DNA from: Nitrosopumilus sp.
GTDB taxonomy: Archaea > Thermoproteota > Nitrososphaeria > Nitrososphaerales > Nitrosopumilaceae
Direction of reading: 5' to 3'
Length of the DNA stretch: 64,000 nt
Assembly (NCBI GenBank): GCA_965249555.1
Contig: OZ252243.1
Location: 832,001 to 896,000 of the forward strand
Part shown: positions 990 to 8,727 of the stretch, piece by piece
How the letters are laid out: each line of letters opens with the position of its first letter
How positions within the stretch are numbered: position 1 is the stretch's first letter
The notes under the pieces: generated by a model
Told to the model about the DNA's origin: nothing
What the model saw: the letters and a program-made list of their open reading frames with translations, nothing else
The model's database searches: none
Made by a program: the position numbers and the translations under genes

Positions 990-1139
990 GTATGTATCAA
1001 CCTTTACGCACAAATCAATAAGCCTCGTATGGATACATGTCCGTCATCTTTTGTTTGAAAGCATTCCCTAGCGAAGGCTATGCCTTGGGATGCAAAAAAG
1101 TGGGAAATGTTTAAAAACAATTCACATGGATACATACGA
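988..1139. mobile_element. Possible 152-bp MITE-like element
   Basis: Perfect 11-bp inverted repeats TCGTATGTATC (988-998) and GATACATACGA (1129-1139); abuts the orphan IS end. Confidence 0.4.
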
Positions 1140-1261
1140 GAATATATGTTCATGCTTATTCATAATTATAAACATTCAGAAAATAACGATCATTATTTTT
1201 TGAATTGTGATCATAATTTTGTTGATAGACTTTTTATAGGTCATTTTTGTAAAGTGTCTAG

Positions 1262-1738
1262 TTGACCGCTTCATCTCTTGCAGGTTTTTTCAATGGAATC
1301 AACAGAACCCTTTCCATGGATCAATTTGATGATAAACTAGAAGTTCAAAAAATAACTTACCTTGCTCAAGAATCTGGGATTGACCTAGGGTATGAATTTG
1401 AATGGTACATACGAGGTCCATATTGTAAACAAGTTTCTGAAGATGCACATACAGCTATAGATAATAAACTAACTGAACACCCAAATGATGTTGATTTAAA
1501 TCAAGAACAAGTTGAAGAGTTTGGAGAAATGTTAAGACCACATCTTGACAACACAGATTGGTTAGAAATTGCAGCTTCAATATTATATCTAAAAAATGAA
1601 AATTATGGAGATAAAGAATTATACGATATTATTGGCTACCTATTAGAAGACCTTACTTATGGTTACAAAAATTTTGAAGAAACTTTAGTTCGTAGGGTTT
1701 TAGCTGATATGCTAAAATTAAACATAATAACAGCATAA
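1262..1738 (+). CDS. YwgA / Panacea (SocA, DUF4065) / DarG-C-terminal-like winged-helix protein, putative antitoxin
   Basis: Motif QKITYLAQ..G..LGYEFEWY..GPY and downstream LEIAASILYL. Confidence 0.65.
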   Translation: MTASSLAGFFNGINRTLSMDQFDDKLEVQKITYLAQESGIDLGYEFEWYIRGPYCKQVSEDAHTAIDNKLTEHPNDVDLNQEQVEEFGEMLRPHLDNTDWLEIAASILYLKNENYGDKELYDIIGYLLEDLTYGYKNFEETLVRRVLADMLKLNIITA

Positions 1739-1782
1739 CAGAATATTTAAAACTATATTCTCTATCGTTAAATAGTATTAAT

Positions 1783-2787
1783 TTGTTTGATCAAAAATGG
1801 AAAGAAATTCTTCAAGATGTAAAAGATAATGGTATTACAGTTAAACGAGGTGAAAAAAGAGCATTCAGAGAGAAAATTTCATATCAATTTCAAATAGATG
1901 ACCCAAGAGATAGGATACTTTTTAACAAAAATTTTGGTTTGAATATATTTCAATGTATAGGACAGTTTTTGTGGATTACACAAGGTAGTTTCAATGCTGA
2001 AACAATCAAATATTATGCTCCATTTTCGTCAAAGTATTCTTCTGATGGATTCAAGATGATTGGTGCTTATGGACCAAGATTATTTGGAATACATCATTTA
2101 GAACAAATCAAACACGTTATCAATGTACTAGATGAAGACACATCCAGAAGAAGGGCAGTCGCATCAATTTATCTTCCACAATTTGATCAACACAAAACAG
2201 CCGATGAAGTACCTTGTACACTAAATTTACAGTATTTAGTACGAGAGCAAAAAGTTCAATCAGTCACATACATGCGAAGTCAAAATGCCTTTAGGCTTTT
2301 GCCTTATGATGTATTTTTATTTACAATGTTACAAGAGTACGTCAATGCAGTTTTGACTACTGCACACAATACAAAACTAGGAAAATACAATCATTATAGT
2401 GGTAGTTTTCATATTTACATGGATGAATTAAATGTAATTGAAAATGTTTTAGAAGATAATACAAATGAAACTTTCCAAATGGAACCCATGCCATCAAAAA
2501 ATATCATTTTAAAATTACAAAAATTAAATAGATTTGAATCAATAGTTAGAACTATCATCTCTTCACATGAAAAAAGAAATAATTCCATTGATTTTGATTT
2601 TCTGTTTGAAATTTGTGAAGAATGGTTTGATGATTCTTATTGGAAACAATTTGCTTTATTATTGATTTGTTATGGTGCAATAATAATGAAAAATGATGAA
2701 AACAGAGATCGTGTCATATCATCATTAGAGCCAATTTACAAGTACATGGTACAAATGTATATTAATAAAAAAGCAAATTCAAGTTAA
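1783..2787 (+). CDS. Thymidylate synthase superfamily protein, (d)CMP hydroxymethylase-like
   Basis: GAYGPRL, RRRAV, catalytic VPCT, MRSQN...PYD and SFHIY motifs; Asp at the E. coli ThyA Asn177 position. Confidence 0.85.
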   Translation: MFDQKWKEILQDVKDNGITVKRGEKRAFREKISYQFQIDDPRDRILFNKNFGLNIFQCIGQFLWITQGSFNAETIKYYAPFSSKYSSDGFKMIGAYGPRLFGIHHLEQIKHVINVLDEDTSRRRAVASIYLPQFDQHKTADEVPCTLNLQYLVREQKVQSVTYMRSQNAFRLLPYDVFLFTMLQEYVNAVLTTAHNTKLGKYNHYSGSFHIYMDELNVIENVLEDNTNETFQMEPMPSKNIILKLQKLNRFESIVRTIISSHEKRNNSIDFDFLFEICEEWFDDSYWKQFALLLICYGAIIMKNDENRDRVISSLEPIYKYMVQMYINKKANSS

Positions 2788-3315
2788 AATTGAATTAGAA
2801 TATTTACGAAGTGAACGATACCAATCTAATTTCTCATTATACTTTGTATCAGCATAACTCTGTCCACTTGTTGAAGGTACAAGATAAATTCGTATGTCCT
2901 CATACTTGTATTGAAACCCATATTCTAAGTTGGAATATTGATTCTGTGAATATATCCTAAAACCCATTTTACCAACAAATGCAACTATTTTAGGCTTGAA
3001 TAAATTCAGAGTTCGATTGAGTCTTCTGGTACTTTTAATCGTGTATCTCTGTTTAATATCAGAAACTGTTCTAGTAGGTATTTTAACAATATCTGTTAGA
3101 CCATAACCAAACTTTAACATTTCTCTGTCATCTTCAGTTTTTAGTAATATGTTAGTTAGGCTTGATTCATACATTAATTTCCAAAATACATTAGAGTGTC
3201 CTGCAAAATAATGGCCAATTTGTGATGAACGTACACCGGGACTAGTACCTACAAAAAAAATTTTTAATTTTTTTTTCAAAATATCAGGTAAGGGCTTTAG
3301 TTTTGCATTCAACAA
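2779..3315 (-). CDS. mug: Mug/TDG-family (UDG family 2) mismatch DNA glycosylase, variant motif 1
   Basis: VGTSPG..S...GHYFAG.SN.FW, GLTDIVK.PT and VPSTSG motifs. Confidence 0.8.
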   Translation of the reverse strand: MLNAKLKPLPDILKKKLKIFFVGTSPGVRSSQIGHYFAGHSNVFWKLMYESSLTNILLKTEDDREMLKFGYGLTDIVKIPTRTVSDIKQRYTIKSTRRLNRTLNLFKPKIVAFVGKMGFRIYSQNQYSNLEYGFQYKYEDIRIYLVPSTSGQSYADTKYNEKLDWYRSLRKYSNSILT

Positions 3316-3568
3316 CTATTTGTAAAAAGACTCATAAAAAAAGATATGATAGTACGTAAAATGAATCCTTTTACCAAGTATAGATTACCCAATTTGGAAC
3401 AATTAAGATTTGATCATTAAATCTCTCATAGAGATTCACCATTATAGTTCAAACCATTAATATGACTAAACAAATCTTTGAACGAGATTTACAATATTAG
3501 TTTGACACTTTAAAATCAATTTCCATAATACTTGAGACTACAGGGTTTGGTTACTATAGTTTAAATCT

Positions 3569-3814
3569 CTAAACTTTTCTTCCGCTTTTCTTAACTTTAG
3601 CAACAGTTCGGCCATAGGATTTTCCAACCGGATTAACATCCACAGTTTTTCCGCCAATTTTTTTATTTAAATTATTTTTTGCTGTCACAAATCCTCGTTG
3701 TCCTTTTTCTGGAGCGTCTTTATCAGCTATTCTGATGTAATTACTGCCTCTAACTGGTCTATCTATTTTGAATGTGTCCCCATCAATTACTTTAGTAACT
3801 TTTCTTTTAACCAT
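3569..3814 (-). CDS. Short staphylococcal-nuclease (thermonuclease)-like protein
   Basis: VIDGDT, IR..DAPE and YGRTVA motifs; only 81 aa. Confidence 0.75.
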   Translation of the reverse strand: MVKRKVTKVIDGDTFKIDRPVRGSNYIRIADKDAPEKGQRGFVTAKNNLNKKIGGKTVDVNPVGKSYGRTVAKVKKSGRKV

Positions 3815-4080: not shown

Positions 4081-5556
4081 TTGGACTTAAAACAATGGTA
4101 TCTAAAATATATCAATTACTTTAGAGAAGAGTATGAAAAATTATCTGTTGATGAAAAGAAAGGTATCAACAACACAAACAATTTTTTAAACCCATGCCAG
4201 ATTGAAATTTTTTGGGTTACTGATCCAGATTACCAATTAATAATACAATCTAATTTTAATGACAGACCAGATAAAGAAATCATTGTAAATGGACCATACA
4301 AACCACATGAATTTCATTCCAAGGTAATTGCAATATTAAACGACAAAAGATGGATACGTAACTTTAAGCAAAATTTGCCATACAGATATGAACAATTTGA
4401 CACTATAGGGGAGAAAATGGCCACAGAGGTTTGGAAGTTTATCGAGATGAGCAAGAATTATCCCTATACATCACAAAGAAGAGATCCTCATCCATTAACT
4501 GGGATGGCACTTGATGATACTTGGACTAGTACTCGTGTTGGTAATATTGGAGATCTTGATCATATACAAGAAATTAACAATATAATTCAAAAAATCAAAC
4601 AGCAAGCCAAATTCAAACAAGAAATAATACATACATCACAACAACCAACATCACTTGCAAATGACACATTTGATGGGTTTGGAGTTCATTTGTTTCCTCC
4701 AATTGTGATAGGTTCATTACACAAACGCAGTATAGAGGAATTAGTCTATAATACATCAAATTATCAGATACGTAATAATAAAGCATTTGATATGAAGATT
4801 TGTAATAAACAAATCATCGTCAACAAAGATGGGTTTATCTTTGTTGAAAGTAATAGTAAAGAAAATGCATTAAAAATTCTAAATCTAATCATGGCATTAG
4901 GTGTATTTTATAAATTTCCTCTGCATGCTGTTCGTGAGTATGAGTTGGTTATGGCTAACTATGACAAACAAAATTTAACTGTGACTAACATGCAATGGAA
5001 TACTGAAACGAGACGAGCACATCTAATGGATGATTTCTTTAATCCTATGTATAGTGGTAGCAATGTAAAAACCAATGTAAAATCAGATACCATAAAGGAA
5101 ATTCTCTCAAACACTGAAAAATTACTTGTACACGAAAAATTATCAGAAGACATGAGATTGCTCAATGAGGGCTTGACTCATTTTATTAACTCAGAATTTG
5201 CTCCATCTTTTATCATGGGTTGGAGTGTAATAGAGAGACATTACTCTGATCTCTGGAACACGTTCCTCTATCAGAAAAATATTGATCATGAACGTTTATC
5301 CAAACTAAACAATTTAGGTCAATGGACAATTGACTATATTTTGGAAGTTCTTAGCCTTCAAGACAAAATTGATGAGAATTCTTTTGATCTTTTAATGGAA
5401 CTAAAAAGAAAGCGTAACAAGTTCTATCATAATGGAAAGCAAGTAACAAAAGAGGATGCTGATCGCTGTCTTAAATGTGCTATGAAACTAGTTGTTGAGA
5501 AAATTAATCTGTACATTAAATTATCAGATAATCTAATGCTTACAAATATATCCTGA
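4081..5556 (+). CDS. HEPN-domain protein (ApeA-like), putative RNase effector
   Basis: C-terminal W.VIE and RNKFYH (R-X4-H) motifs. Confidence 0.65.
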   Translation: MDLKQWYLKYINYFREEYEKLSVDEKKGINNTNNFLNPCQIEIFWVTDPDYQLIIQSNFNDRPDKEIIVNGPYKPHEFHSKVIAILNDKRWIRNFKQNLPYRYEQFDTIGEKMATEVWKFIEMSKNYPYTSQRRDPHPLTGMALDDTWTSTRVGNIGDLDHIQEINNIIQKIKQQAKFKQEIIHTSQQPTSLANDTFDGFGVHLFPPIVIGSLHKRSIEELVYNTSNYQIRNNKAFDMKICNKQIIVNKDGFIFVESNSKENALKILNLIMALGVFYKFPLHAVREYELVMANYDKQNLTVTNMQWNTETRRAHLMDDFFNPMYSGSNVKTNVKSDTIKEILSNTEKLLVHEKLSEDMRLLNEGLTHFINSEFAPSFIMGWSVIERHYSDLWNTFLYQKNIDHERLSKLNNLGQWTIDYILEVLSLQDKIDENSFDLLMELKRKRNKFYHNGKQVTKEDADRCLKCAMKLVVEKINLYIKLSDNLMLTNIS

Positions 5557-5944: not shown

Positions 5945-7035
5945 TAGCGACGATCAAAAGTTCGTGAACATCTTTGCAGGATTTCTAAAAATATAATTAA
6001 CAACATCAAGTTTGAATTTTTTTTGTTCCAAAGTATTGTGACACTGCATTATTCATTATTGTAAACATTGCATAATATTCTGATACCAACAACACATGCC
6101 TGCTTATCTTCCAACACTGCTCTATCATGTTTAGATATGGTGATCCTTTTGGTAGCCAAATCAGTTTAACATCTGGATTATCTGTCAAAAAGTCCTTGAC
6201 CTTCTTTGATTTGTGCACTGATGCCCTGTCAAGTATCAACGCAATTTTACCATATTTGTAGTGTAACTCTTTTAGATATTCTACAAATGTTATGCCGTTG
6301 AATTTTTTATAAATTCTAAACAGTTGGTCTCCATTGATTGTAATTGTTCCATACACTGCCAAACTTTCATGGTTTCCCACATATGGGAGAAATATTCTTT
6401 TGGCAACTGGTGACCAATATTTTCGTCCTGCTTTTACATCCCTAACAAAGAATGCCTCATCAAGCATTGCAATGGTGAATCCACTCTTTTTTAGGTGTGG
6501 AATTCTCTTTTTCATGCGTTGCTGCCAGCTGCGCACAGCTGTTACACTTGCATGATTGACGTGATATTTTTGTGCAGTTTTAGCAGACATTCCATACTGG
6601 CGCATTATTTTTCTGACATGTGTTATGTGAAATTTTATTCCAGTAGAATCAAATATTGTCTGCTGCAGCATTACAGGTGTAAATAGTGTCAACATAATTT
6701 TGAACATAATAGAATCCATTTGCTTCTTTGGGATTACACATGGTCTTCCACTCCTTGGGTGATCGTAGAGGCCGTCAAGGCCATCTACTTTAAAACGATC
6801 AACCCATTTGCGTACCCAGTTTGTACAGCGGTATAGTGTTTGTGCGGTGTACTCTAATTCCTTACCCTCTTTGAGAACCATTAGTACTGCAAGCATCCTG
6901 ACTGCCGCTTTGGAGTTTTCCTTTTTGTATGCTACTTCAAGCTGTTCTAACTTGTTCATGTGTTTCATTGTGTGTGGTGATCAAAAAGTCTTTCGTTTTG
7001 ATGATTTTTAGTTCACGAACTTTGGCTCTTCGCTA
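5945..7035 (-). mobile_element. IS630-family insertion sequence
   Basis: Terminal inverted repeats 5943-5969 and 7011-7037 (24/27 match including flanking TA); TA duplication at 5943-44 and 7036-37. Confidence 0.9.
6006..6968 (-). CDS. IS630-family transposase
   Basis: HTH with PRSGRP; DDE triad LDEA, LDRASVH, PYLNMIEQCW. Confidence 0.92.
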   Translation of the reverse strand: MKHMNKLEQLEVAYKKENSKAAVRMLAVLMVLKEGKELEYTAQTLYRCTNWVRKWVDRFKVDGLDGLYDHPRSGRPCVIPKKQMDSIMFKIMLTLFTPVMLQQTIFDSTGIKFHITHVRKIMRQYGMSAKTAQKYHVNHASVTAVRSWQQRMKKRIPHLKKSGFTIAMLDEAFFVRDVKAGRKYWSPVAKRIFLPYVGNHESLAVYGTITINGDQLFRIYKKFNGITFVEYLKELHYKYGKIALILDRASVHKSKKVKDFLTDNPDVKLIWLPKGSPYLNMIEQCWKISRHVLLVSEYYAMFTIMNNAVSQYFGTKKIQT

Positions 7036-7164: not shown

Positions 7165-7935
7165 TTGTGGAATAATAAACCAATCAACATCAAAACAGCA
7201 ATAAAACCTCTTGGAGGATGTCAGGATCAACCTTGGTTGATGGAAGATGATGATAAAAAACAATATGTAGTAAAATTCAGAAGAAATGACAATATTCCAA
7301 CTATCATGAATGAGATTTTTGCAAACAAATTAGCAGTACAATTGAATCTGCCAGTTCCAAAAATGTTTCTTGTAAATGTAGATGAACAATTAATTAACAA
7401 AGTTCCAGAATTAACACAACGTAAAATCAAAGGAGGGAGACATATAGCTACAGAATTTATAAAAAACTCTATCACAATGAATGATTTACTTGGTTTCCCT
7501 ACACAAAACCGTAATATTTTAAATATGGATCAAGTTCCAAAGTTTGTTATTTTTGATATGATGTTATACAACAATGACAGACATAATAAAAATATATTAC
7601 TTGCAAAAAATTACGATGGTAATTACAAATATTACTTGATAGATCATGGAACTATCTTTTGTGGGAAATTTTGGGGAAAATCTATTTATAATTTACGATA
7701 TAAAAAAATACGTAATAATTGGCAAACAAATGGATCTAACTATATCGATGCTTATCAGGATTTTGCAGAAACAGTAAATGATTTAAAAAAATCAGATTAT
7801 TGGAATTCTGCGAATTATATTATAGATGAGTTTTTATTACATTCTCAAACCCCAAAATTCATAGTGAATAAACTCGTTCAGGATAATCAAAAGACAATAC
7901 TTAATTTTATCAATGATTCAATAAAGAGTAGATAA
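7165..7935 (+). CDS. HipA-like (HipA_2, PI3/4-kinase fold) kinase
   Basis: YVVKF, NEIFA, NNDRHNKNIL and LIDHG motifs. Confidence 0.85.
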   Translation: MWNNKPINIKTAIKPLGGCQDQPWLMEDDDKKQYVVKFRRNDNIPTIMNEIFANKLAVQLNLPVPKMFLVNVDEQLINKVPELTQRKIKGGRHIATEFIKNSITMNDLLGFPTQNRNILNMDQVPKFVIFDMMLYNNDRHNKNILLAKNYDGNYKYYLIDHGTIFCGKFWGKSIYNLRYKKIRNNWQTNGSNYIDAYQDFAETVNDLKKSDYWNSANYIIDEFLLHSQTPKFIVNKLVQDNQKTILNFINDSIKSR

Positions 7936-7938
7936 AAA

Positions 7939-8727
7939 ATGACGTGGTTTTCGTATACAGTAGTAAAATTTATTCCAGATCCAGTAAAAGATGAACGAGT
8001 TAATATTGGGGTTATTGTACTTGGTGATGATGGTTCTTGCAAATCTAAATTCGTTAAAAATTTTAATTTCATAAAAAAAATATATTCTATAAGTGATGTT
8101 GATTTATTAGAATTTGTTTTATCAAATTATGATTATAATAAATCCAAACAAGATGTAAATCTTCTTCAGAAGTTATATGAGAATTCTATTCGTGATCATA
8201 GAATAAAGGTAGAATCTCCTCGTGCTATTAATTCAAACTCTATCCTTGTAGCTGTTGATGAATTATTTTTACAAATGATTAGTATTCCTGAAAAACAACA
8301 TATCTCTAATGCTTTGACTGATTTGGATAATAAAATTACAAAAATTTTATACAAAAAAATAAAAATGCAAAGACGATTTGTAAAGCGACATCATTGTGTA
8401 TCGGGTAAAAAAACAAATAGTAAATATGATTATGTGTTTATGAATGGACATGTAACTAACATCCTACAGAGAATATCTTTTGATATTTTAAACAAAGATC
8501 ATGCATTACAAAAAGTAAAATCATTTGTGTATGATTCTATAGATATTCATGAAAAATTAGATAATATAACTTGTGTTGCATATGTACCAACGCCCAAAAA
8601 GATTTGCGAACAACATGTTGAAGCTGTAGAGGTTTTAAAATCATCTAAATATTGTACATTGGTAGATGATAATTCCTTAGAGACATGTTTAGTACGAATT
8701 CATGAAAAGCATACACAAACAAGTTAG
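7939..8727 (+). CDS. DUF3037-domain protein, partner of the HipA-like kinase
   Basis: YTVVKFIPDPVKDERVNIGVI N-terminal signature; starts 3 bp after the kinase. Confidence 0.8.
   Translation: MTWFSYTVVKFIPDPVKDERVNIGVIVLGDDGSCKSKFVKNFNFIKKIYSISDVDLLEFVLSNYDYNKSKQDVNLLQKLYENSIRDHRIKVESPRAINSNSILVAVDELFLQMISIPEKQHISNALTDLDNKITKILYKKIKMQRRFVKRHHCVSGKKTNSKYDYVFMNGHVTNILQRISFDILNKDHALQKVKSFVYDSIDIHEKLDNITCVAYVPTPKKICEQHVEAVEVLKSSKYCTLVDDNSLETCLVRIHEKHTQTS

Follow-up and report, generated by a model that had tools for sequence, protein, structure and literature searches.

We report a conserved cassette of four or five genes, a truncated copy of which lies near the start of a 64,000 nt stretch of Nitrosopumilus sp. 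DNA (GenBank assembly GCA_965249555.1, contig OZ252243.1, positions 832,001 to 896,000 of the forward strand; C1:832001-896000 of genome G000, which is one 2.23-Mb contig); this whole stretch is referred to below as the window. Three adjacent genes make up the copy: ORF1 (open reading frame 1; 1262-1738, + strand), whose acidic 158 aa product has the predicted fold of the DarG C-terminal domain; the TS-like gene (1783-2787, + strand), encoding a 334 aa thymidylate synthase (TS) homologue modelled with the fold of MilA; and Mug-m (2779-3315, − strand), encoding a 178 aa Mug/TDG-type protein of the UDG superfamily in which motif 1 reads GTSPG. By comparison with related loci, this trio is the truncated core of an arrangement in which a second, divergently oriented Mug gene (Mug-c) is followed by an optional gene of the nucleoside deoxyribosyltransferase family (NDT), then by ORF1 and the TS-like gene, with Mug-m converging from the far side. 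As far as can be judged from its relatives, the cassette is small and mobile, and found within few ammonia-oxidizing archaea. Our preferred reading, which we hold about as likely as not, is that it is a conflict module, serving antiviral or abortive defence or addiction, that would act via 5-substituted deoxycytidine (dC) nucleotides and base excision.

The arrangement recurs in 25 distinct genome or metagenome loci with TS identities of 47-93%, loci L032 and L034, which score the same as L017 and L018, being counted once. ORF1 lies directly 5′ of the TS-like gene in all 20 loci whose upstream sequence is available (in L019 it is interrupted by an insertion sequence (IS)), the other five loci starting inside the TS gene, and Mug-m is found convergent and 3′ in 20 of the 21 loci with at least 500 nt downstream (truncated in L017 and absent from L019). 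Mug-c is upstream in 15/16 assessable loci, the exception being the window, and NDT stands between Mug-c and ORF1 in 10 of 16 covered intervals. Spacing is equally regular: ORF1 and the TS-like gene are 28-55 bp apart across loci, and the ends of the TS-like gene and Mug-m range from a 29-bp overlap to a 9-bp gap in 12 of 13. The 44 bp gap and the 9 bp convergent overlap described for the window by a first-pass annotation, made from the sequence alone, were reproduced from the ORF coordinates, and the three families do co-occur elsewhere, contrary to the outcome that it named as refuting its proposal. A genome scan with a single TS protein as query returned just two loci, a search in which an alignment query would reach further.

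A complete second copy is present in the same genome, 0.95 Mb from the window copy (locus L005, C1:~1,781,500-1,784,660). It consists of Mug-m (with the motif GTRPG), the TS-like gene, ORF1, NDT (115 aa; Nuc_deoxyrib_tr, PF05014, 7e-13) and a divergent Mug-c with the canonical GTNPG motif. The TS-like and ORF1 proteins of the two copies are 52% and 57% identical, respectively.

The window copy has lost Mug-c. Its homology to the cassette of locus L007, with which it is 90% identical, spans only 1139-3351, and position 1139 pairs with L007 5356, inside the L007 Mug-c ORF (4834-5382, + strand); the last ~27 nt of the lost gene thus survive at 1139-1165 (+ strand). A tblastn search at E<=10 detected nothing of the Mug-c or NDT coding sequences 5′ of 1139. 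An unstranded repeat of ~120 bp occupies 1017-1139, with at least 28 further genome copies at 91-98% identity, and looks like a miniature inverted-repeat transposable element (MITE) or a solo IS end. Because homology starts at 1139, at the end of Mug-c and exactly where the multicopy repeat stops, we interpret the repeat as marking the point of truncation, which bears out the earlier proposal that upstream genes may have been lost at a scar at 967-1139. A ~30-bp piece at about 987-1020, just 5′ of the repeat, recurs ~15 further times in the genome. To the annotated trio, our comparisons add the second Mug paralogue, NDT, the Ser-for-Asn exchange in Mug-m, a TS clade devoid of the catalytic Glu, and the second cassette copy.

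Proteins encoded by the cassette

The TS-like protein belongs to the thymidylate synthase family (Pfam Thymidylat_synt, PF00303; 4.4e-15, 56 bits vs a cut-off of 24.3) and falls below every NCBIfam ThyA equivalog cut-off (best 66.8 vs 174.55). Its closest solved relative is MilA, a CMP 5-hydroxymethylase that functions in mildiomycin synthesis (3.6e-28), whereas ThyA proteins match at 5.5e-8 or worse. The AlphaFold2 model, with a predicted local distance difference test (pLDDT) score of 93, aligns with MilA over the full length, including the C-terminal helical domain, at template-modelling (TM) scores of 0.83-0.88, but with ThyA at just 0.5-0.6. In an alignment of 108 sequences, comprising both copies from this genome and 106 of 120 listed relatives (300-380 aa), the nucleophile Cys145 (E. 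coli Cys146), the phosphate-binding Arg165 and Asp176, which is equivalent to ThyA Asn177, are present in 108/108, Ser166 and the phosphate-binding Arg123 in 107/108, and His210 and Tyr212 are invariant or nearly so.

These residues bear directly on the substrate. According to passages of the MilA paper (PMC5175136), Asp at the ThyA-177 position denotes cytosine substrates and Asn uracil, and Ala176 with Lys133, as in MilA and BcmA, denotes a preference for ribose, as opposed to Ser with Arg for deoxyribose. The universal Asp supports the initial description of a cytosine-type TS homologue. Because it is combined with Arg123 and Ser166, where MilA has Lys133 and Ala176, the likely substrate is dCMP, and the residue pattern departs from that of a CMP (ribonucleotide) hydroxymethylase. 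The TS-like protein is therefore predicted to be a dCMP C5 one-carbon transferase, probably of the hydroxymethylase type; the residues expected for cytosine and deoxyribose selection are in place, and the group transferred may be hydroxymethyl or methyl. Housekeeping dTMP synthesis was considered as a role and rejected, given the presence of ThyX, Asp176 and the occurrence of the gene in just 6 of 301 genomes. ThyX, which these archaea had been said to use for dTMP, is indeed encoded elsewhere in the genome (G000:C1:1816663-1818006; an open frame of 546 aa in which the Thy1 domain occurs twice in tandem), so that the TS-like protein is unneeded for that purpose.

Mug-m matches Pfam UDG (PF03167; 1.6e-15, 57.8 bits vs a cut-off of 24.3), human TDG (1.3e-20) and E. 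coli MUG (3.8e-15), as its annotation as a Mug/TDG glycosylase implied, and scores 80.3 on the NCBIfam Mug equivalog, under the cut-off of 144. The TDG motif GINPG aligns with GTSPG in the window protein, so that the catalytic Asn is replaced by Ser. Of 19 distinct Mug-m copies, 17 show this exchange, the others having Arg (L005) or Asn (L027), whereas Mug-c, the upstream paralogue lost from the window, retains the canonical Asn in 15/15 distinct copies. In a maximum-likelihood tree all Mug-m sequences group on a single branch (100/100 support) whose stem is long (0.79), the pattern to be expected from duplication followed by functional change. The Mug proteins are basic (isoelectric points of 9.7-9.9), the TS-like protein is neutral and ORF1 is acidic (4.3). 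The other UDG-superfamily gene of the genome, at C1:260068, is a different family member.

ORF1 had been taken for a Panacea-like antitoxin. The antitoxin fold has held up, but the Panacea assignment has not: ORF1 matches no Pfam family, Panacea included, even at E<=10, and no PHROG family. The only matches from PADLOC (2.6e-6) and NCBIfam (2e-5) are to DarG, in the C-terminal portion that binds the toxin, with an NCBIfam DarG score of 24 vs a cut-off of 250, its 158 aa covering the C-terminal-like part alone, with no macrodomain. A profile of 36 relatives reached the DarG chain of PDB 7yk3 at an E-value of 0.022, with the motif LEhQKhxYxAxE...GPY in common. Foldseek placed the ORF1 model (pLDDT 95) with 7yk3 at a probability of 1.00 and TM scores of 0.56-0.59, all remaining matches having a probability of 0.11 or less, and VIA-align gave Z 10.4 over 136 residues (root-mean-square deviation 3.5), the next entry being at Z 5.1. 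On the strength of the model, ORF1 has a DarG C-terminal-domain fold. The model had no match in the viral structure library at E<=0.001. No DarT gene adjoins ORF1, whose neighbours are the TS-like and Mug genes, a result that covers the adjacent genes and not the rest of the genome. No ORF1 fusion was seen among proteins of 278-2000 aa, which is weak evidence.

The wider ORF1 family has 1126 representatives at E<=1e-3, some of them named 'YwgA' by JGI, and lacks a Pfam model: none of 32 representatives scanned gave a match, PF13274 included, and the sole Panacea (PF13274) lead is an Atlas cluster, scored at 0.82, with this domain in 13% of its members. Matches occur in 56/301 genomes at up to 12 per genome, an expansion within this archaeal class. 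ORF1 paralogues adjoin small ORFs, and their 37 scanned neighbours included two ParE toxins, one PIN protein, four winged-helix regulators and two restriction-modification parts, and this family picture fits a promiscuous antitoxin-like module. Two further ORF1-like paralogues lie outside the cassettes in G000, at C1:171707-172165 and C1:418318-418692. The database version of ORF1 (P0121) is 140 aa long and begins at an internal ATG; the longer form with a TTG start is plausible because its N-terminal helix is conserved in relatives and modelled with high confidence.

The nearest PDB relative of NDT is the 2′-deoxynucleoside 5′-phosphate N-hydrolase Rcl/DNPH1 (2.7e-6; 3.5e-5 to the Rcl/DNPH1 entries named '5-hydroxymethyl-dUMP N-hydrolase'), with which it has the GVGxE catalytic motif in common, whereas the match to the CMP N-glycosidase MilB is far weaker (E 0.016). 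In three loci an extra gene of 338-366 aa is inserted between NDT and ORF1 (L028 3319-4419, L029 2703-3719 and L027 3-686, all + strand). Its product has a C-terminal Cys cluster and the motifs EEVGE and DEIADVFSW, reminiscent of the pair of metal-binding motifs in NTP pyrophosphohydrolases of the MazG type, at a likeness below significance (1vmg E 0.6; Pfam MazG E 0.12). Were this MazG-like reading true, the L027/L028/L029 sub-clade would encode a route from dCTP via dCMP and modified dCMP to the free base.

More distant relatives connect the TS subfamily with DNA. In L039, L041 and L042 (GC content 0.55-0.60), a TS gene of 34-39% identity is convergent on, and overlaps, a Mug gene with the canonical Asn, and ORF1 is absent beside the pair; an ORF1 profile likewise found nothing beside the more distant TS relatives. 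The retention of this convergent pair suggests that the TS-Mug link is older than the archaeal cassette. Among 31 more distant TS loci examined (L043-L103), 20 have the TS gene followed by an unknown ~265-aa gene and then by aGPT-Pplase3/ADDT, in a bacterial or prophage operon that often has DUF4031 upstream and a Peptidase_M78 gene downstream; several distant TS loci adjoin Shedu, SIR2, TIR, Mrr or HNH genes, and on viral contigs the TS gene lies beside DNA polymerase III alpha and dUTPase-like genes. Because of the aGPT-Pplase3/ADDT genes and the viral DNA polymerase neighbours, we link the TS subfamily to base modifications destined for DNA. All TS proteins of the distant operon have the cytosine-type Asp, which suggests that this operon hypermodifies a base derived from cytosine, not thymidine.

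Distribution, decay and genomic setting

The TS-like gene was found in 6 of 301 sampled Nitrosopumilaceae genomes (E<=1e-20), and the named relatives are Nitrosarchaeum and Nitrosopumilus. Relatives of the Mug proteins at E<1e-50 are confined to the same six genomes and G080, a remnant with a Mug-c pseudogene and an orphan ORF1; the other 12 Mug matches are weak (32-40% identity), four of them in the genomes G258, G228, G206 and G077, which are flagged as unpublished and on which no other result depends. The cassettes are set among housekeeping genes that vary by locus (UbiA/UbiD; a PLP enzyme and thioredoxin reductase; thioredoxin and DsbA; ADH and TruD, among others), with IS elements or integrases close by. 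At the L005 copy there are an integrase, ParB and IS630 pieces.

Decay is frequent, with degraded copies in four of seven carrier genomes. The TS gene is frameshifted in G287, stops interrupt Mug-m of G219, and in G259 an IS630-type element interrupts ORF1 and Mug-m is absent, with TS intact. Sporadic presence, small variable islands and frequent decay together are typical of defence or addiction genes. A provirus replication module was also considered for the cassette, and was ruled out by the 4-9 kb size of the islands and the lack of viral hallmark genes beside it.

The window copy sits in an island, as the first-pass annotation had it. Over the first 9 kb, most 1-kb windows have a GC content of 0.26-0.32, apart from 0.35-0.38 over the transposase (about 6-7.5 kb), vs 0.33-0.43 at 9-20 kb. 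The island holds the multicopy repeat, an IS630-type DDE_3 transposase identified by family match (6006-6968, − strand) and, 4 kb downstream of the trio, a HipA_2-type kinase (7165-7935, + strand) directly followed by a DUF3037 protein (7939-8727, + strand), recognized by Pfam and as the PADLOC pair PDC-M66A/B. The HipA-like/DUF3037 domain pair is the validated anti-phage system DS-6, HipAD, according to passages of the DefensePredictor paper (PMC13092281). A 491-aa protein (4081-5556, + strand) with a weak C-terminal HEPN (Swt1-like) match (E 1.2e-4, below the Pfam cut-off) may be a further defence gene of the island, and an 81-aa ORF (3569-3814, − strand) similar to a portion of a thermonuclease-type endonuclease (phrog_452, 7.9e-8) probably represents a gene fragment. 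The IS630-type element of the window has a frameshifted copy next to the second cassette (L005 5655-6576).

Models for cassette function

What follows on the reaction, on what becomes of its product, on the bases that Mug-c and Mug-m excise, and on the neutralization and partner of ORF1 is an inference. If the cassette is a conflict module, Cys145 of a TS-like dimer would attack C6 of dCMP, and a methylene group from methylene-folate would be transferred to C5, yielding, by the MilA architecture, most likely 5-hydroxymethyl-dCMP. The DNPH1-like enzyme could hydrolyse this product to free base and deoxyribose-5-phosphate, thereby draining or sanitizing the dC pool; alternatively, host kinases could phosphorylate it, allowing its entry into replicating DNA. 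The Mug paralogues would work on DNA containing the modified base, the product of its deamination or a similar base of viral origin. Mug-c would act as a canonical glycosylase, and Mug-m, with its altered active site, would have acquired a new specificity or tight binding. ORF1 would hold one enzyme in check until a trigger arrives, the candidates being the co-transcribed TS-like protein and a basic, DNA-binding Mug protein.

A more specific form of this model, host-encoded 'poison-and-excise' immunity, would be the most novel but is on balance unlikely. On infection, the TS-like protein, once freed, would flood the pool with a 5-hydroxymethyl-dC nucleotide, fast-replicating viral DNA would take up the base, and the Mug paralogues would excise it from viral DNA, leaving abasic sites; in uninfected cells, the DNPH1-like hydrolase and an acidic, DNA-mimicking ORF1 would keep the system silent. 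If true, microbes would possess a weaponized equivalent of the human DNPH1-SMUG1 axis.

Several observations weigh against a conflict module. Neither the TS-like protein nor Mug-m has a PADLOC match, most other neighbours of ORF1 paralogues belong to no known family, and the cassette encodes no kinase that could convert modified dCMP into the triphosphate. At the position of the catalytic Glu (E. coli Glu58, MilA Glu68) the window protein has Gln61, and throughout the cassette clade (at least 45% identity, n=65) the site is Gln (42), His (22) or Thr (1), and never Glu, in contrast to 26 of 39 distant TS relatives that have Glu. Because the clade consistently lacks this residue, its TS-like proteins may be slow, inactive or engaged in other chemistry; by alignment, the absence sets them apart from all characterized relatives. 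Finally, since G259 keeps TS with ORF1 broken, it speaks against a simple pair of TS toxin and ORF1 antitoxin, although Mug-m is also gone from that locus.

Alternatively, the TS-like protein might supply 5-hydroxymethyl-dC or 5-methyl-dC nucleotides for partial modification of the DNA of the host or the carrying element, with the Mug paralogues repairing the deaminated products (hydroxymethyluracil:G (hmU:G) or T:G) and ORF1 acting as a regulator. The membership of distant TS proteins in DNA-hypermodification operons, with aGPT-Pplase3/ADDT within two ORFs downstream in 20/31, and the viral TS copies beside DNA polymerase genes both agree with this proposal, as does the ancestry of Mug/TDG proteins as repair glycosylases, of which Mug-c keeps the canonical Asn. 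However, the core cassette is without a dCTPase or dedicated kinase, the only lead being the weak MazG-like one in a single sub-clade, and cassette decay is more frequent than would be anticipated if repair depended on a genome-wide modification. An antitoxin-fold partner and a hydrolase that would destroy the product also fit poorly, and just 6 of 301 genomes carry the cassette. We therefore consider self-modification with dedicated repair a doubtful explanation, if one to be taken seriously.

The lack of Glu in 65/65 cassette-clade TS proteins and the defence-island context are what would be seen if the glycosylases alone conferred defence, in the manner of the Brig proteins discussed below: modified bases in viral DNA would be removed by the Mug proteins, with the TS-like protein as a non-catalytic nucleotide sensor or decoy and ORF1 in a regulatory role. 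Defence glycosylases of the UDG superfamily have established precedents, but the (near-)invariance of Cys, the phosphate-binding Arg residues, His210/Tyr212 and Asp176 in 108 sequences points to retained nucleotide chemistry, and the His found at the Glu position in 22/65 could act as an acid/base. We judge this explanation improbable.

A metabolic role, like that of MilA/MilB or BcmA/BcmB, would have the cassette make free 5-hydroxymethylcytosine for a small molecule, or sanitize the pool, with the glycosylases as passengers. MilA is the best solved relative of the TS-like protein, an Ndt-family N-hydrolase is adjacent in 10/16 loci, and MilB is in the NDT list of PDB matches (E 0.016). Set against this are the replacement of the ribose-preference residues Lys133 and Ala176 by Arg and Ser, the absence of NDT from 6/16 loci as opposed to the almost constant presence of the Mug genes, the cassette specificity of both Mug paralogues, and a lack of conserved tailoring or export genes adjoining the cassette; such a role is highly improbable. 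That the trio are chance neighbours without a common function is contradicted by the recurrence of their order and spacing in 25 distinct loci (47-93% TS identity) with different flanks and strict genome-level co-occurrence, and would seem to us barely credible.

If the conflict-module model is true, cells can combine base modification at the nucleotide level with base excision for immunity or addiction, and the cassette would encode new enzymes, namely a dCMP C5-transferase without the catalytic Glu and a Mug protein whose Asn-to-Ser exchange may confer a new base specificity. Such enzymes would be of interest for the study of modified cytosines. Ammonia-oxidizing archaea are among the most abundant microbes of oceans and soils, and to our knowledge little has been learned about their resistance to viruses.

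Comparison with known systems

Our literature search found no paper describing this cassette; each of its domains is known from other conflict or repair systems, and we have not found the combination described. The nearest structural parallel is MilA of Streptomyces rimofaciens (PDB 5b6d, 5jnh), which has the same fold as the TS-like protein, the extra C-terminal helical domain, the nucleophile Cys and the Asp. MilA differs in having Glu68 where the TS-like protein has Gln or His, and at the sites that give MilA its ribose preference the TS-like protein has the same Ser and Arg as ThyA and the dCMP hydroxymethylase gp42 of phage T4. The genes for MilA and T4 gp42 belong to an antibiotic cluster and a phage replication module, respectively, whereas the TS-like gene is part of a chromosomal mobile cassette with glycosylases.

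Defence by modified-base excision is represented by the UDG-superfamily proteins Brig1, Brig2 (bioRxiv 10.1101/2025.10.29.685425) and Brig3, the last with its helper BapA (bioRxiv 10.64898/2026.02.25.707755), according to the portions of these reports that we consulted. Like the cassette, Brig1-3 are UDG-superfamily proteins in mobile, AT-rich defence contexts, and Brig3/BapA pairs a glycosylase with a base-modifying enzyme. The partner there is a DNA deglucosylase, in contrast to the nucleotide-level TS homologue here, and the cassette glycosylases are unlike Brig in being plainly of Mug/TDG type, as a canonical and Asn-to-Ser pair. The portions of the Brig1-3 texts consulted contain no pairing of a glycosylase with a TS homologue, and 'thymidylate' is absent from the passages on Brig3/BapA.

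A host-encoded TS homologue inside a defence unit has a precedent. Passages of the DefensePredictor paper (PMC13092281) list a thymidylate synthase domain among newly validated anti-phage defence domains in E. coli, and aGPT-Pplase, MazG and UDG domains as predicted to be defensive; in its supplement, the TS-containing system 'NTTI' consists of TS, an adenylate kinase, a DNA base-hypermodification protein and a TIR protein. The partners listed there for 'NTTI' include no Mug glycosylase, DarG-C-terminal-domain-like protein or DNPH1-like hydrolase, and 'NTTI' is bacterial where the cassette is archaeal.

The likeness of ORF1 to DarTG is confined to one domain. ORF1 agrees with the DarG C-terminal domain in its fold and in the motif LEhQKhxYxAxE...GPY, but DarG has a macrodomain and a DarT partner, whereas ORF1 is without a macrodomain and neighbours a TS homologue and glycosylases. 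Deep and colleagues reportedly found in 2023 that the DarG C-terminal domain neutralizes the DNA-modifying toxin DarT by mimicry of single-stranded DNA. Lastly, the human DNPH1-SMUG1 axis, like the cassette, joins an Ndt-family dNMP N-hydrolase with a UDG-superfamily glycosylase. In that axis, as Fugger and colleagues are said to have described in 2021, DNPH1 clears 5-hydroxymethyl-dUMP, and glycosylase excision of the incorporated base is cytotoxic. The cassette differs in having its own generator of the modified nucleotide, in the predicted derivation of its base from cytosine, and in the gathering of all parts in one mobile cassette.

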